NCBI RefSeq assembly: GCF_016026235.1
Contig: NZ_CP065613.1
Direction: 5' to 3' (one strand)
Length of the DNA stretch: 64,000 nucleotides
DNA from: Escherichia coli
GTDB taxonomy: Bacteria > Pseudomonadota > Gammaproteobacteria > Enterobacterales > Enterobacteriaceae
Part shown: positions 33,770 to 61,997 of the stretch, one piece after another
How positions within the stretch are numbered: the first letter of the stretch is position 1
Layout of the letters: the number at the start of each line of letters is the position of its first letter
Position numbers and translations under genes: made by a program
Notes under the pieces: generated by a model
Told to the model about the DNA's origin: nothing
The model's database searches: none
What the model saw: the letters and a program-made list of their open reading frames with translations, nothing else

Positions 33770-33784
33770 GGTTCCGGCGTTCGG

Positions 33785-34060
33785 CGCACGGTGCCTGATG
33801 CGACGCTGACGCGTCTTATCAGGCCTACGAGTCGCCCGTATGTAGGCCGGATAAGGCGTTCACGCCGCATCCGGCATTTGGTGCACGGTGCCTGATGCGA
33901 CGCTGACGCGTCTTATCAGGCCTACGAATCGCCCGTATGTAGGCCGGATAAGGCGTTCACGCCGCATCCGGCATTTGGTGCACGGTGCCTGATGCGACGC
34001 TGACGCGTCTTATCAGGCCTACGAGTCGCCCGTATGTAGGCCGGATAAGGCGTTCACGCC
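33785..34060. repeat. tandem BIME array, about three copies of a ~98 bp unit
   Basis: Unit cacggtgcctgatgcgacgctgacgcgtcttatcaggcctacga[g/a]tcgcccgtatgtaggccggataaggcgttcacgccgcatccggcatttggtg repeated head-to-tail. Confidence 0.9.
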
Positions 34061-34097
34061 GCTTTTAACCGGCACGATTTACCGGTAAGGATCCAAC

Positions 34098-35488: not shown

Positions 35489-36418
35489 ATGCGAGTAACC
35501 ACCCAACAAACCTACGTCTCGATGACGCAAAGTTTTAATAATCTCTCCGGCGATCTGGCGCACGTGGTCGAGCAGATGGCAACCGGTAAGCAGATTTTGC
35601 AGCCGTCGGATGACCCGATCGCCGCCACGCGCATCACCCAGTTAAACCGCCAGCAGTCGGCGATTGAACAGTATCAGAGCAATATCGACTCCGCGTCGGC
35701 GGGGTTAAGCCAGCAGGAATCGATTCTCGATGGCGTCAACAACAGCCTGCTGGCGGTGCGCGACGACCTACTGGAAGCGGCGAACGGCACCAATACCGCC
35801 GATTCGCTCGCAAGCCTCGGCCAGGATATTGAGACGCTCACCGAATCGATGGTCGCGGCGCTGAACTATCAGGATGAAGACGGGCACTACGTGTTTGGCG
35901 GCACCATCAACGATCAGCCGCCGATTGTGGCAGTGGACGATGATGGCGATGGTGTCACCGACAGCTATAGCTACCAGGGCAACAGCGACCACCGCCAGAC
36001 CACCGTATCGAACGGCGTGGAAGTGGATACCAACGTGGCGGCGAGCGATTTCTTCGGCAGCAATTTAGACGTGCTCAACACGCTCAATTCGCTCTCGCAG
36101 GAGTTGCAAAACCCCAACGTTGACCCGGCAGATCCGCAGGTGCAGAGTGATATTCAGAACGCCGTTGATGTGGTGGACACCGCCTCGGACGACCTCAACG
36201 CCTCGATTGCGTCACTCGGCGAGACGCAGAACACCATGTCGATGTTGAGCGATGCGCAGACCGATATCTCTACCTCTAATGATGAGTTGATTGGTTCATT
36301 ACAGGATCTCGATTACGGCCCGGCGTCGATCACCTTTACCGGACTGGAAGTGGCAATGGAAGCTACCCTCAAGACTTACTCGAAGGTGAGTGAGTTGAAT
36401 TTGTTCAGCGTTCTCTAA
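35489..36418 (+). CDS. lfgL: lateral flagellar hook-associated protein 3, FlgL family
   Basis: Start at MRVTTQQTYVSM; flagellin-like N-domain motif QPSDDPIAA. Confidence 0.8.
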   Translation: MRVTTQQTYVSMTQSFNNLSGDLAHVVEQMATGKQILQPSDDPIAATRITQLNRQQSAIEQYQSNIDSASAGLSQQESILDGVNNSLLAVRDDLLEAANGTNTADSLASLGQDIETLTESMVAALNYQDEDGHYVFGGTINDQPPIVAVDDDGDGVTDSYSYQGNSDHRQTTVSNGVEVDTNVAASDFFGSNLDVLNTLNSLSQELQNPNVDPADPQVQSDIQNAVDVVDTASDDLNASIASLGETQNTMSMLSDAQTDISTSNDELIGSLQDLDYGPASITFTGLEVAMEATLKTYSKVSELNLFSVL

Positions 36419-48174: not shown

Positions 48175-48429
48175 ATGGGCAAATATATTCGTCCCTTATC
48201 CGATGCGGTATTTACCATCGCATCTGATGACCTGTGGATCGAGAGTTTAGCGATCCAACAATTACACACCACGGCAAATTTACCCAACATGCAGCGCGTA
48301 GTGGGGATGCCAGATTTACACCCCGGACGCGGCTACCCGATTGGCGCGGCGTTCTTCTCTGTTGGTCGTTTTTACCCGGCAAGACGTCGCGGTAACGGTG
48401 CTGGAAACCGAAGCCGGGCGTTATCCTGA
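48175..48429 (+). pseudogene. ykfJ: RtcB-like RNA ligase N-terminal remnant
   Basis: MGKYIRPL...[19 protein letters not shown] resembles an RtcB N-terminus; the frame ends after ~85 codons. Confidence 0.5.
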
Positions 48430-48709
48430 CACGCTGCGTTCGTCGGGGCCGGGCGGTCAACATGTCAATAAAACCGACTTGGCGGTACGCGCCACGCATC
48501 TGGCATCCGGTATTAGCGTGAAGGTTCAGTCAGAGCGCAGCCAGCATGCTAACAAACGGCTGGCGCGATTGCTGATTGCCTGGAAGCTGGGGCAGCAGCA
48601 ACAGGAAAATAGCGCGGCGCTGAAATCGCAGCGGCGAATGTTCCATCACCAGATTGAACGTGGCAACCCGCGACGGACATTTACAGGGATGGCTTTTATC
48701 GAAGGATAA
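48341..48709 (+). pseudogene. prfH: peptide chain release factor homolog RF-H, C-terminal remnant
   Basis: GGQ motif region ([21 protein letters not shown]) with no complete N-terminal domain; overlaps the RtcB-like remnant in another frame. Confidence 0.55.
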
Positions 48710-55233: not shown

Positions 55234-56487
55234 ATGCTGGAACAAATGGGCATTGCCGCGAAGCAAGCCTCGTATAAATTAGCGCAACTCTCCAGCCGCG
55301 AAAAAAATCGCGTGCTGGAAAAAATCGCCGATGAACTGGAAGCACAAAGCGAAATCATCCTCAACGCTAACACCCAGGATGTTGCTGACGCGCGAGCCAA
55401 TGGTCTTAGCGAAGCGATGCTTGACCGTCTGGCACTGACGCCCGCACGGCTGAAAGGCATTGCCGACGATGTACGTCAGGTGTGCAACCTCGCCGATCCA
55501 GTGGGGCAGGTAATCGATGGCGGCGTACTGGACAGCGGCCTGCGTCTTGAGCGTCGTCGCGTACCGCTGGGGGTTATTGGCGTGATTTATGAAGCGCGCC
55601 CGAACGTGACGGTTGATGTCGCTTCGCTGTGCCTGAAAACCGGTAATGCGGTGATCCTGCGTGGTGGCAAAGAAACCTGTCGCACTAACGCGGCAACGGT
55701 GGCGGTGATTCAGGACGCCCTGAAATCCTGTGGCTTACCGGCGGGTGCCGTGCAGGCGATTGATAATCCTGACCGTGCGCTGGTCAGTGAAATGCTGCGT
55801 ATGGATAAATACATCGACATGCTGATCCCGCGCGGCGGGGCTGGTTTGCATAAACTGTGCCGCGAACAGTCGACGATCCCGGTGATCACAGGTGGTATAG
55901 GCGTATGCCATATTTACGTTGATGAAAGTGCAGAGATCGCTGAAGCATTAAAAGTGATCGTCAACGCCAAAACTCAGCGTCCGAGCACATGTAATACGGT
56001 AGAAACGTTGCTGGTGAATAAAAACATCGCCGATAGCTTCCTGCCCGTATTAAGCAAACAAATGGCGGAAAGCGGCGTGACATTACACGCAGATGCAGCT
56101 GCGCTGACACAGTTGCAGGCAGGCCCCGCGAAGGTGGTGGCGGTTAAAGCCGAAGAGTATGACGATGAGTTTCTGTCATTAGATTTGAACGTCAAAATCG
56201 TCAGCGATCTTGACGATGCCATCGCCCATATTCGTGAACACGGCACGCAACACTCCGATGCGATCCTGACCCGCGATATGCGCAACGCCCAGCGTTTTGT
56301 TAACGAAGTGGATTCGTCCGCTGTTTACGTTAACGCCTCTACGCGTTTTACCGACGGCGGCCAGTTTGGACTGGGTGCGGAAGTGGCGGTAAGCACACAA
56401 AAACTGCACGCACGTGGCCCAATGGGGCTGGAAGCACTGACCACTTACAAGTGGATCGGCATTGGTGATTACACCATTCGTGCGTAA
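55234..56487 (+). CDS. proA: gamma-glutamyl phosphate reductase
   Basis: 417-aa aldehyde-dehydrogenase-family ORF directly after proB. Confidence 0.95.
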
Positions 56488-56601
56488 ATAAAACCGGGTG
56501 ATGCAAAAGTAGCCATTTGATTCACAAGGCCATTGACGCATCGCCCGGTTAGTTTTAACCTTGTCCACCGTGATTCACGTTCGTGAACATGTCCTTTCAG
56601 G

Positions 56602-56677
56602 GCCGATATAGCTCAGTTGGTAGAGCAGCGCATTCGTAATGCGAAGGTCGTAGGTTCGACTCCTATTATCGGCACCA
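56602..56677 (+). tRNA. thrW: tRNA-Thr (anticodon CGU)
   Basis: 76-nt sequence GCCGATATAGCTCAGTTGGTAGAGCAGCGCATTCGTAATGCG...GGCACCA with cloverleaf features and anticodon CGT. Confidence 0.95.
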
Positions 56678-56803
56678 TTTAAATCAAGTAGTTACCCCAT
56701 ATTTAAATACACCACGTTTCCTCCTGTGCCGTATTTGTGCCATTGTAACCCTGGCAATTAATCAAAATACTGTTCTGACATCAGGCAATGCAGGTGCAGA
56801 CAT

Positions 56804-57214
56804 TTAAGCCAATTGCTGCCGCCATTCCTTGACGTGGTCAATCAGGGCGCGGAGCTTTGGTGCAATATTGCGACGCTGTGGGAAATACAGATAGAAGCCC
56901 GGAAATTGTGGAAGAAAGTCATCAAGCAGAGATACAAGCCTACCGCTTTCAATATATGGCCTGAAAGTTTCCTGAGTGGCAATTGTTATTCCTCCGCCGG
57001 CAAGAGCCAGCCTCAACATCAGACGCAGATCATTAGTCGTAATCTGTGGTTCAATCGCAAGGTCGAAAGTTCTCCCGTTTTCTTCAAATGGCCAGCGATA
57101 AGGCGCAACCTCCGGGGACTGACGCCAGCCGATACACTTATGGGTATTTCCCCCGGAGGTGAGAAAGCGCTTTCCACGCCCGGCCGCAAGGATCAGGACG
57201 ACGGGGGCAGGCAT
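56804..57214 (-). pseudogene. yagP: LysR-family regulator fragment (C-terminal substrate-binding domain only)
   Basis: 136 codons from MPAPVV...; LysR C-terminal motifs (LRLALAGGGITIATQ...SGRLVSLLDDFLPQFPGFYLYFPQRR); no N-terminal HTH domain. Confidence 0.5.
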
Positions 57215-58150
57215 GAATCCTCCTCCTGATGGAGACGTACAGAGGCGACTTCTGCCAGCACGGAGAGTGCCAGAGTATGCGCATCCCGGGCTTTGGGGAA
57301 TATCCCGACGGGTGCCCGAATTTGCGCTGTCTCCTCCCTGGACCATCCCAGCTCGTGGAGCTTTTGCAGACGTAACGTGTGGGTTCGATAGCTGCCCAAT
57401 GCGCCGAGATAAAAGGGTTTTGCTTCTCGCGCGGCCTGCAACACTGGCAGCTCCCGGTTGAGATCATGGCACAGCAAAATGACCGCCGTATCGGTATCGA
57501 TCTGAGCGCTGGCTGAGGCCGGAAAAAGATCGAAGATATGGCTGTCATAGCCTGTGGCTGCTGCAAGACTCGCGGTTGCCTGCGCCTCAAGAGAACGTCC
57601 GTAAATCATCAGCCTGACGCATGGCCTGAACCCCACCTCAAAGCCATTGAGATTCCAGCCACGTTCGGGTTTGCGTGGGCAGGCACACCAACGATTGTGC
57701 TTGCGGATCGTAGCGCAGCCCCGCCGGTTTTCTCTGTTCCAGGCGGTTCAGCACGGCGAGCAGAGGCTGTGCCGAGCGTAGTTTATGGAGCGTCAGCGTG
57801 ATCCCACCGCCGCAGGGCAGAACGATGTCAAACCACGGCGAACCTTCGCCATAGCGAATTTCGCGATCGCAGCCTGAGCCCATCATCTCCAGCGCTTCAA
57901 AAGCGGCAGCGGCCTCCACGCAGCCGCCAGAGACAAAACCGCAGTAACGACCATCTTCGCGCACCACCATCTGCGCCCCGAGCGGGCGCGCCGCGCCGCC
58001 GCGTATCTCCACCAGCGTCACCAGCACCGCTCCTTTACCGGACATTAGCGCCTCTACGGCGAAGCGCAGAATGGTCCGGTGGTCATCGGTGAGAAACGCC
58101 TGCTCTGGCTTATGCCAGTGTTCGTCTTTATCAAAAAGCGGGTATGACAT
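57193..58150 (-). pseudogene. paoD: XdhC-family molybdenum cofactor insertion chaperone, apparently frameshifted
   Basis: N-domain ORF (57638-58150) and C-domain ORF (57193-57636) are adjacent in different frames; together they make one XdhC/CoxI-like protein. Confidence 0.6.
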
Positions 58151-58159
58151 TGTTCCTCC

Positions 58160-60358
58160 TTAAACCACATCCGGCAGCTTATCGAGCAGCTTATCCAGAG
58201 TGATGGGATAATCGCGTACCCGAATACCGGTGGCGTTATACACCGCGTTGGCGATAGCAGCGCTCACGCCGCACAGGCCCAGCTCACCGACACCTTTGGC
58301 CTTCATCGGGGAGGATATGGGGTCGGTATCATCCAGGAAAATCACCTCCTGTTTTGGGATATCCGCATGGACCGGCACCTCATACCCCGCCATATCGTGA
58401 TTAACGAAGTAGCCCAAACGGTCATCCACCGCCAGCTCCTCCATCAGTGCCGCGCCCATGCCCATAGTCATTGCGCCAATGACCTGGCTGCGTGCAGTTT
58501 TCGGATTCAGGATGCGTCCTGCAGCACACACAGCGAGCATATGCCGGACCCGAACTTCTCCCGTCGCGCTATGCACGCCGACCTCCACAAAATGCCCGGC
58601 AAAGGTCGACTGCTGGTACTCCTTGCTCAGTGTTCCGAATTCAATGCTCTCTTCCGCTGTCAGTCTGCCGCCTGCGGTGGCCTCATGTAGCGTGGCGCTT
58701 CGGGTACCGTTGGTAATCTTGCCGTCGGCAAACTGCGACTGCTCAGGATCAAACCCGACTGCCGAGGCAATCATTTCGCGAAGCTTCACACAGGCGGCGT
58801 AAACGCCGGAGGTGGAGGTATTCGCGCCCCATTGTCCGCCAGAACCCGCAGAAACCGGGAAACTGGAGTCGCCAAGGTGAACCGCAACCTGCTCCAGCGG
58901 TACGCCAAGCATTTCCGCCGCCGTCTGGGCCAGAATGGTGTAGCTGCCGGTGCCAATGTCGGTCATGTCCGTTTCCACGGTAACGGTGCCGTTTTGTTCG
59001 AGGTGAACCCGAGCCCCCGATTTTTCCAGCAGATTATTGCGAAAGCCCGCCGCGACGCCGTGGCCGACTAGCCACTCTCCGTCGCGTACCTGTCCGGGTG
59101 TGGCGTTGCGCTGCTTCCAGCCAAATTTATCCGCTCCGGTGCGCAAGCACTCGATAAGCTGACGGCGAGAGAAGCGGCGCGTCGGGTCGGCGGGGTCAAC
59201 CTGAGTGTCATTCAGGATGCGAAACTCGACGGGATCGATGCCCGCTTTTTCCGCCAGTTCGTCGATCGCGATTTCGAGCGCCATCAGACCGGGGGCTTCG
59301 CCGGGCGCACGCATGGCGTTCCCTTCCGGCAAATCAAGCGTGGCGAGCCGCAGGCCGGTATGACGGTTTGCCCCGGCGTAGAGTAATTCGCTTTGCTGTA
59401 CCGCCGTTTCCGGCGTGCCGCCGAGCAGGTTTCCGGACCAGCTTTCATGTGAGATAGCTGTGATTTTCCCGCTCTGGTCGGCACCGATACGCAGGTGCTG
59501 AAGGGTGGCGGGGCGGTGCGTGGTGTTATTGGGAATAGTGGGGCGGGGGAGCATCACTTTAACCGGACGTTTCACCGCTCGGGCGGCGAGGGCCGCCAGC
59601 AGCGCATCGCTTCTCAGGAACAGCTTGCCGCCAAACCCTCCGCCGATATACGGGGAGATAATACGCACATTCTCCACGGGCACTTTCAGCGTTTTTGCCA
59701 GATCGGTGCGGCACCAGTCAATCATCTGATTTGAGGTCCAGAGAGTAAGCTTATTTCCATCCCAGACGGCCATCGAGGCATGCGGCTCCATCGCCATATG
59801 GCTCTGGTCCGGGGTCGTGTAGGTAGCATCAATCTTCACCGCAGCGGAGGAGAAAGCCCCGTCAAAGTCACCGACGTTTTTGTCGGGCGTGCCTTCCGGC
59901 GGCTGATTGACGGCCTGTTTTTCGTCCGCCAGGGAGTAAGCTCCTTTATTACGGCGATAGTGCGCCTGCACCAGCGAGGCCGCCGCTCGCGCCTGTTCGA
60001 AGGTCTCGGCCACTACCAGCGCAATGGCCTGATGATAGTGCTCAATAGTGGGGCCGCCTAACAGCCTGGCGGTGTTTTTGTCGCCTTTGCCGAGTGCCCC
60101 GGCGTTACTGGCGGTAATGACAGCCAGTACGCCCGGCGCTTTTTGCGCGGCGTCCGTATCAAGGGCGGTGAGGCGTCCTTTGGCAATGGCGGAACCGACG
60201 ATATAGCCATAGGCGGCGTTGGGGGATTCTTCATGCCATTCGTAGGCGTAGCGTGCCGTGCCGGTAGTTTTCAGCGGTCCGTCGATGCGGTCATAGGGAC
60301 GACCGACAACCTTCAGCTGATCGATCGGGTTTTCCCCTGCGGGTTTATCAAATTTCAT
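58160..60358 (-). CDS. paoC: aldehyde oxidoreductase molybdopterin-binding subunit
   Basis: 732-aa xanthine dehydrogenase-family large subunit. Confidence 0.9.
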
Positions 60359-61311
60359 GCTTGTGCCCTCGCTTCAGCCAGTACGGAGGCAAGCGTTCGC
60401 TTCGCCAACAGGAGTTTAAAGGTGTTTTCAGCGGTGGGATGGGCGCTGGCGAACAGCGCGTCATATACGGCCTGCGCCCCCTGGGATAGCTGAGCATCCG
60501 CAGCCTCAATGCGCCAGGGCTTATGTGCTACTCCGCCCAGCGCGACGCGCCCGCTGCCGTCAGGCTGAATAATCGCCGCGACCGATACCAGGGCAAAGGC
60601 GTAGGAGGCGCGATCGCGCACCTTACGGTAGATATGTTTTCCGCCGAGCGGCGGAGGTAACGTCACCGCAACGATAAGCTCACCGGGAAGCAGGGCGGTT
60701 TCAATGTGCGGCGTTTTCCCCGGTGGGTGATAAAAATCAGCCAGTGTGATACTGCGAGTCTTTCCCTCCGGCGTGATGGTTTCCACCACCGCATCCAGCA
60801 ACCGCATTGCGACCGCCATATCGCTCGGATGGGTGGCAATGCAGGCTTCGCTTACGCCTACCACCGCGTGCTGACGGCTAAAGCCTTCAAGCGCCGCGCA
60901 GCCGCTCCCGGGCAGGCGCTTATTGCAGGGCTGATTGGTGTCGTAAAAATAGGGGCAGCGCGTGCGCTGGAGCAGATTACCTGCGGTGGTTGCCTGATTA
61001 CGTAACTGACCAGACGCGCCAGCGAGCAGGGCGCGGGAGAGTACCGCGTAATCACGACGCACGCGCTCGTGAGCCGCCAGGTCGGTGTTCCGTACCAGTG
61101 CGCCGATGCGCAGCCCACCCGCGTCGGTCACTTCAATCTTATCGAGCCCGAGGCCGTTCACATCGATAAGGTGGGTGGGCGTTTCAATTTCCAGCTTCAT
61201 CAGGTCCAGCAGATTGGTCCCGCCCGCGATAAATTTTGCGCCGGGTACGCGCTGAGCGCTAAGTGCCGCCTCGGCCGGGGTGTTCACTCGTTCATAGGTA
61301 AACGCCTTCAT
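60355..61311 (-). CDS. paoB: aldehyde oxidoreductase FAD-binding subunit
   Basis: 318-aa CO dehydrogenase flavoprotein-like ORF. Confidence 0.9.
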
Positions 61312-61997
61312 GATTTTATCTCCCCCGCAGCGTCTTCAATGGCGGCAAGGATGTTAGCGTATGCACCACAGCGACAGATGTTGCCGCTCATACGTTCACG
61401 GATCTCATCGGCAGTTCTTTCTGGAGGGGAAACCAAATCGACCGTGACGTGACTGGGAATGCCGTCCTGAATCTCTTTTAGCACCGCTACTGATGAGCAA
61501 ATTTGCCCGGAGGTGCAGTAGCCGCACTGGAAGCCATCATGCTTGATAAAGGCCGCCTGCATGGGGTGAAGATTATCTGGTGAACCCAGGCCTTCAATGG
61601 TGGTGATCTCGGCCCCCTGATGCATGACTGCCAGCGTCAGGCAGGCATTAAGCCTGCGACCATTGACCAGCACGGTACAGGCTCCGCACTGTCCGTGATC
61701 GCAACCTTTCTTGGTACCGATCAAATGCAGATTTTCACGCAAAGCGTCCAGTAGCGTGGTTCGGGTATCCACCTCAAGCTGCTCGGTTTTGCCGTTCACC
61801 TTAAGTGTCAGGGGCATTATCTCTGGCGCGGGTGTAGCTGCCGGAACGCTTGCCGCAAGCGTAGAATGAGGATAAACCACGGCGGTCGCCGCCGTTGCGG
61901 CGCTCACTTTAATCAGATCGCGACGGGTCAAACTTAAATCGTGCGGCTCGTGCTTCCCAACCCGATTATCTTCGGGGTATTCGCCTTGGTTGCTCAT
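61308..61997 (-). CDS. paoA: aldehyde oxidoreductase 2Fe-2S subunit with Tat signal peptide
   Basis: Twin-arginine motif [16 protein letters not shown]; two [2Fe-2S] Cys clusters ([18 protein letters not shown]). Confidence 0.9.

Follow-up and report, generated by a model that had tools for sequence, protein, structure and literature searches.

A single-base insertion splits paoD, the chaperone gene of the paoABCD operon, in an Escherichia coli clone

PaoD is a chaperone of the XdhC class which receives MCD from MocA and is indispensable if sulfurated MCD is to be inserted into PaoABC (PMC3909100). Expression of paoABC without paoD results in an inactive, unstable and MCD-free enzyme (PMC2997495). 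In the window analysed here, a stretch of 64,000 nucleotides of the E. coli assembly GCF_016026235.1 (contig NZ_CP065613.1), paoD is found as two adjacent open reading frames (ORFs) instead of one. The locus thus raises the question of what has split the gene, whether the split is genuine, and whether a working chaperone could still be made from the two parts. The gene order in the window is proB, proA, tRNA-Thr(CGT), a LysR-type fragment and then, on the minus strand, paoD, paoC, paoB and paoA. Hereafter, we refer to the following features:

57193-58150, minus strand: paoD, frameshifted pseudogene and last gene of the paoABCD operon, as defined by nucleotide comparison with intact paoD.
57638-58150, minus strand: ORF1, 170 aa, with the XdhC_CoxI domain; its TGA lies at 57638-57640.
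57193-57636, minus strand: ORF2, 147 aa if read from GTG (57634-57636), corresponding to native residues 172-318, with the XdhC_C Rossmann domain.
57661: inserted base, read as plus-strand A or coding-strand T, with which codon 164 begins, as located by alignments to intact alleles.
58160-60358, minus strand: paoC, molybdenum-binding subunit, 732 aa, intact; protein identical to that of strain FDAARGOS_943.
60355-61311, minus strand: paoB, FAD-binding subunit, 318 aa, intact; protein identical to that of FDAARGOS_943.
61308-61997, minus strand: paoA, iron-sulfur subunit, 229 aa, intact; protein identical to that of FDAARGOS_943.

The paoD gene of the window is 99.9% identical to the annotated intact paoD of strains 1919D62 and FDAARGOS_943, with one inserted base as the sole difference. 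Global alignment with 1919D62 over 1,151 bp gives exactly one difference, the extra A at position 57661 of the plus strand, and a single difference to both 1919D62 and PS2Canimalfeces12 is seen in a 200-base stretch around the break. On the coding strand, the window reads ACCCGAACG[T]GGCTGG at the insertion, where the intact alleles read ACCCGAACGGGCTGG. The inserted T is located between two G's within ACGGGC, in surroundings that contain neither a homopolymer nor a repeat tract. When position 57661 is deleted in silico, a 318-aa protein is obtained which is identical to RefSeq WP_021577022.1, annotated as molybdenum cofactor insertion chaperone PaoD. The split of paoD is a single +1 insertion at codon 164; chance is not at issue here, because this is a direct sequence comparison and not a statistical signal. 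A previous sequence-only reading of this stretch had described two adjacent ORFs in different frames with the N- and C-domains divided between them, and the ORF and Pfam results confirm this arrangement along with its coordinates. It had also proposed a single inserted or deleted base near 57640-57660 as the explanation. One extra base is indeed the cause, yet it lies one base outside that range. The alignment to intact paoD of other strains that it had proposed yields this one inserted base, the removal of which restores 318 codons.

To establish how widely the insertion occurs, a 1,151-bp query across paoD was searched against 5,426 complete RefSeq E. coli genomes, a set from which the source genome of the window is absent. 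Matches were obtained in 3,602 of these genomes, the best of them with 99.9% identity and spanning 1,150 bases. The insertion itself, searched as a 61-mer centred on it, is carried by none of 3,551 records, i.e. by none of the 3,546 complete genomes that possess this stretch of paoD. Of the complete genomes, FDAARGOS_943 (NZ_CP065615.1), with its intact paoD, is the nearest. Between this genome and positions 34053-64000 of the window (29,948 bp), we count 17 substitutions and, as the single indel, the gap in paoD. Most of the first 28.5 kb of the window aligns with FDAARGOS_943 in five pieces of 99.77-100% identity, three of which contain no gap and two of which contain one gap each. By reading contigs, the exact 170-aa product was found encoded on 24 public contigs, Logan assemblies among them. 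The same product is deposited at NCBI as STL99534.1 on a 4.56-Mb contig, and the allele is publicly recorded as a pair of distinct 'xanthine dehydrogenase accessory factor' proteins. Moreover, the insertion is present in the Logan assemblies of four independent runs (SRR11606891, ERR926423, SRR13627093 and SRR17652784). Over 6,513 bp, the locus of SRR11606891 shows no difference to the window, whereas three private SNPs flank the insertion in ERR926423, and SRR13627093 and SRR17652784 have one private SNP each, at different positions. Since the four runs share the insertion while their flanks represent four slightly different genotypes, the allele is inherited within a small clade.

These data bear directly on the possibility that the split is a sequencing or assembly artefact and that the strain in fact has an intact paoD. 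Such an artefact would agree with the lack of the insertion in every complete RefSeq E. coli genome searched, and STL99534.1 seems to derive from what we take to be a long-read reference-collection assembly, in which indel errors can occur. However, the insertion is not a change in homopolymer length, it is the sole indel in 30 kb relative to the closest genome, and the identical allele recurs in four independent runs whose flanking sequences differ in their private SNPs. We therefore give the artefact hardly any credence; the independent runs, together with the near-absence of other indels, effectively refute sequencing error as the cause of the split. The resequencing suggested in the sequence-only reading, with a single 318-codon ORF as the result that would speak against the split, has in effect been carried out by these runs, and the split persists in all four of them as well as in STL99534.1. 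The paoD insertion is a real, inherited mutation, and of this we are practically certain.

With regard to the encoded proteins, ORF1 comprises native PaoD residues 1-163, followed by seven out-of-frame residues (WLESQWL) and the TGA. Pfam locates XdhC_CoxI (PF02625) at residues 35-101 of ORF1 (E=1.7e-20, 73.1 bits vs. a cut-off of 24.3) and XdhC_C (PF13478) at residues 9-130 of ORF2 (E=3.6e-21, 76.4 bits vs. a cut-off of 29.7). While intact PaoD carries both domains, here XdhC_CoxI is found in ORF1 only and XdhC_C in ORF2 only. The window's paoD hence does not encode a continuous chain of about 300-320 aa that unites the two domains, as required of this chaperone. Among the curated NCBIfam models we tested NF045664 (XdhC_rel_AOR, cut-off 350) and TIGR02964 (xanthine_xdhC, cut-off 161.6). 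None was passed, intact PaoD included, with scores of 76.4 bits (NF045664) and 48 bits (TIGR02964); judged by these scores, PaoD is a relative and not a member of the two equivalogs.

The two ORFs differ in their prospects of being translated. ORF1 keeps the strong native Shine-Dalgarno (SD) sequence AAGGAGG, whose duplex with the anti-SD amounts to -12.1 kcal/mol. For ORF2, gene callers choose an in-frame ATG at 57609 that gives 138 aa, and SD pairing is weak both at this ATG (-2.6 kcal/mol) and at the GTG at 57636 (-3.3 kcal/mol). A consensus scan of positions 56480-58300 found no sigma-70-like site for ORF2, and on this result an internal promoter was rejected. The stop of ORF1 and the GTG of ORF2 are one base apart (UGAgGUG), and termination-reinitiation would be the sole possible route to translation of the C-terminal ORF. 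Synthesis of the ORF2 product is thus probably low or nil.

To locate the break within the protein, we aligned 24 orthologues of 60-88% identity from Leclercia, Enterobacter, Citrobacter, Sodalis and other genera. In this alignment, conservation is 90% or higher at T163, G164 and W165. Among the relatives reachable from PaoD, those listed from outside E. coli each consist of one chain of 300-321 aa that bears the two domains. In the AlphaFold2 model of intact PaoD (mean pLDDT 86.4, pTM 0.83), residues 164-166 and 169-174 form a β-hairpin directly before the first Rossmann strand (179-183), and the 10-residue blocks of the hairpin region have pLDDT means of 93 and 95. In the solved homologue 2WE7, the segment GEGMEVFVSSY aligns with GWNLNGFEVGF of PaoD and is likewise situated just ahead of the Rossmann core. 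According to the model, the break is inside an ordered, conserved hairpin and not in a linker, and the near-invariant T-G-W motif is destroyed. In terms of the modelled structure, the ORF1 fragment is left without the hairpin and the ORF2 fragment starts in the middle of the second hairpin strand. A division between the N- and C-domains, as noted from the sequence, thus holds at the level of Pfam; the boundary is not a clean one, the cut being in the β-hairpin with removal of the TGW motif. That paoD is cleanly divided in a domain linker, with two halves that might still work, was rejected as the main reading in view of the hairpin position, the conservation among orthologues and the lack of a ribosome-binding site for ORF2.

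Taken together, the coding-strand T inserted at 57661 shifts the paoD frame at codon 164, and translation from the native ribosome-binding site stops seven codons past the shift to give a 170-aa fragment. This fragment keeps XdhC_CoxI, while the last β-hairpin of the N-terminal half and the entire Rossmann-like C-domain are gone. As the dedicated chaperone of the XdhC family, PaoD receives the molybdopterin cytosine dinucleotide cofactor, sulfurates it and inserts it into PaoC. In the absence of PaoD, the PaoABC subunits, although intact, should lack the cofactor and be neither stable nor active. We consider it likely, with a probability of roughly 0.85, that the clone makes PaoA, PaoB and PaoC but does not mature them, and that its periplasmic aldehyde oxidoreductase is non-functional. 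Loss of PaoABC is predicted for the clone because paoABC without paoD has been reported to be inactive and MCD-free. The loss of the cofactor-insertion chaperone that had been anticipated for PaoABC is supported by reasoning from the same published work (PMC2997495, PMC3909100). If PaoABC maturation is lost, carriers should detoxify aromatic aldehydes in the periplasm less well. For annotation purposes, the two ORFs would be better merged and flagged as one frameshifted pseudogene.

Readings in which some function survives centre on the stop codon that terminates ORF1:

57638-57643, minus strand: premature stop CUU UGA, followed by G; the same hexamer as in the prfB +1 'shifty stop'.

Residual function could arise either from a +1 slip at CUU UGA or from two separately made fragments that associate as a two-chain chaperone, and as a whole we regard it as unlikely. 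In the slip version, a 318-aa PaoD would be made in which residues 164-170 are changed from GWNLNGF to WLESQWL (junction peptide TWLESQWLEVGFR), and the slip would re-enter the native frame exactly at Glu171. CUU UGA is moreover the most critical element of the prfB site, where a mutant with a disrupted SD-like sequence is milder than a CUU-to-CUA mutant (PMC13245932). The other elements of that site, namely the SD-like AGGGGG, a UAU/UCU spacer and a C after the stop (PMC13245932), are however all absent from paoD, and a slip-rescued PaoD would still be without the near-invariant G164 and W165. In the two-chain version, the second fragment would be made by termination-reinitiation at UGAgGUG, helped by the position of the ORF2 GTG 1 nt after the stop, and a complete Pfam domain is retained in each ORF. 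Against this, the cut falls within a confidently modelled β-hairpin and not in a linker, SD pairing of ORF2 is negligible, and no two-chain orthologue is found among the relatives listed. Furthermore, PaoD is reported to be an unstable dimer even when intact (PMC3909100). The specific proposal that the accidental CUU UGA works as a weak +1 site, so that full-length PaoD with exchanged residues 164-170 is made at a level of a few per cent and matures some PaoABC, appears very improbable to us; if true, it would represent a natural case of a frameshift that suppresses itself in part through a chance shifty stop like that of prfB. That the frameshift is a programmed or phase-variable switch, and thus a regulated or reversible feature of paoD expression, is close to inconceivable. 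The chance occurrence of the CUU UGA hexamer is all that speaks for it, whereas the allele is a derived one that is limited to a single small clone and found in none of the 3,546 complete genomes with this stretch, the orthologues of other genera are single ORFs, and there is no simple-sequence tract able to slip back and forth. With one of four prfB elements present and a split that is not conserved, programmed frameshifting was rejected.

Returning to the loss of PaoABC maturation as the preferred reading, the remainder of the operon can be considered. The intact structural genes lie directly upstream of paoD, which is the last gene of paoABCD. Since paoA, paoB and paoC are intact and their proteins are those of FDAARGOS_943, the paoD lesion is recent, with no secondary decay accumulated. 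Unchanged PaoA, PaoB and PaoC would fit a very recent loss and would equally fit residual function.

Downstream of paoD, positions 57137-57214 of the minus strand encode MPAPVVLILAAGRGKRFLTSGGNTHK, which overlaps the last 22 bases of paoD and runs on beyond it. This peptide is identical at 22 of 26 positions to the N-terminus of a 187-aa NTP_transf_3 gene (MocA-like, PF12804) of Leclercia sp. 29361 (L010:5936-6499), which in that strain directly follows paoD. In E. coli, the similarity to the Leclercia gene ends after 26 codons, and the frame enters the LysR_substrate fragment (56804-57142), annotated as a 'LysR substrate-binding domain' pseudogene. The pao operon of E. coli hence appears to have lost a cytidylyltransferase-like fifth gene by deletion or fusion. 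The tRNA-Thr(CGT) at 56602-56677 is located between proA and the LysR fragment. As only ~125 bp separate it from the latter, no integrated island is present behind the tRNA here; in K-12 this tRNA-Thr(CGT) is presumably the site of the CP4-6 prophage.

Further afield, positions 1-48000 of the window contain a second flagellar cluster (lateral, Flag-2 type) with lafA, lafU and paralogues of flg and fli genes. An IS4-like ISEc60 copy at ~25091-26388 occupies the same site as the copy that splits a glycosyltransferase gene in FDAARGOS_943, while two other IS copies of that strain, ISEc60 in flgH and one IS5-family element, are missing from the window. The flgL gene (35489-36418) is intact in the window and has an internal stop in FDAARGOS_943. 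At 33773-34062, three 97-bp units (97% matches) form a tandem array, the site of which is intergenic in FDAARGOS_943, between the gene of a rod-binding protein and flgK. Inside this array the pairwise alignment of the two sequences breaks off, which suggests a difference in copy number. Between yafP and pepD, fragments of RtcB-family and release-factor-like genes are annotated in FDAARGOS_943. Positions 48175-48709 of the window correspond to that stretch (L003 21175-21709), and the alignment runs across it.

Across E. coli as a whole, the pao region is missing from 1,824 of the 5,426 complete genomes (about a third). Public data contain other disrupted PaoD products, including 448-aa fusions of PaoD with the LysR fragment and 336-aa variants. 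In addition, there are PaoD clusters whose representatives have 258 aa (1,010 member sequences) and 228 aa, and further products of 167, 187, 193 and 228 aa on chromosome-size contigs; the truncated products may include partials at contig ends or assembly errors. The PaoD of PS2Canimalfeces12, with 307 aa, is annotated merely as 'XdhC family protein'. Loss of PaoD function in E. coli appears to be recurrent and tolerated, given the absence of the pao region from 1,824 of 5,426 genomes and the other truncated or fused products. The case described here has little significance beyond the strain and adds one more example of the frequent loss of, or damage to, the pao locus in this species.

In conclusion, when compared with known cases, the paoD of this clone shares with intact E. 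coli PaoD the same locus and operon (proA-thrW-yagP'-paoDCBA), identity to WP_021577022.1 apart from one base, and both Pfam domains. Unlike intact PaoD, its frame is broken at codon 164, the domains are on separate ORFs, and the TGW motif and the hairpin 164-174 are lost. Compared to other disrupted paoD alleles of E. coli, the additional T at codon 164 is particular to a single clone. Like the +1 site of prfB (RF2), the paoD stop has an identical CUU UGA and the productive frame in +1. In contrast to prfB, however, paoD lacks the SD-like AGGGGG, its upstream sequence being GAA UCU CAA UGG, and has UGG instead of UAU/UCU as the spacer and G instead of C as the fourth base. Moreover, its CUU UGA arose by accident from the insertion, and the interrupted frame is not conserved. 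The paoD of the window is thus an ordinary strain-specific pseudogene of a dispensable gene, an already deposited allele that presents nothing mechanistically new.
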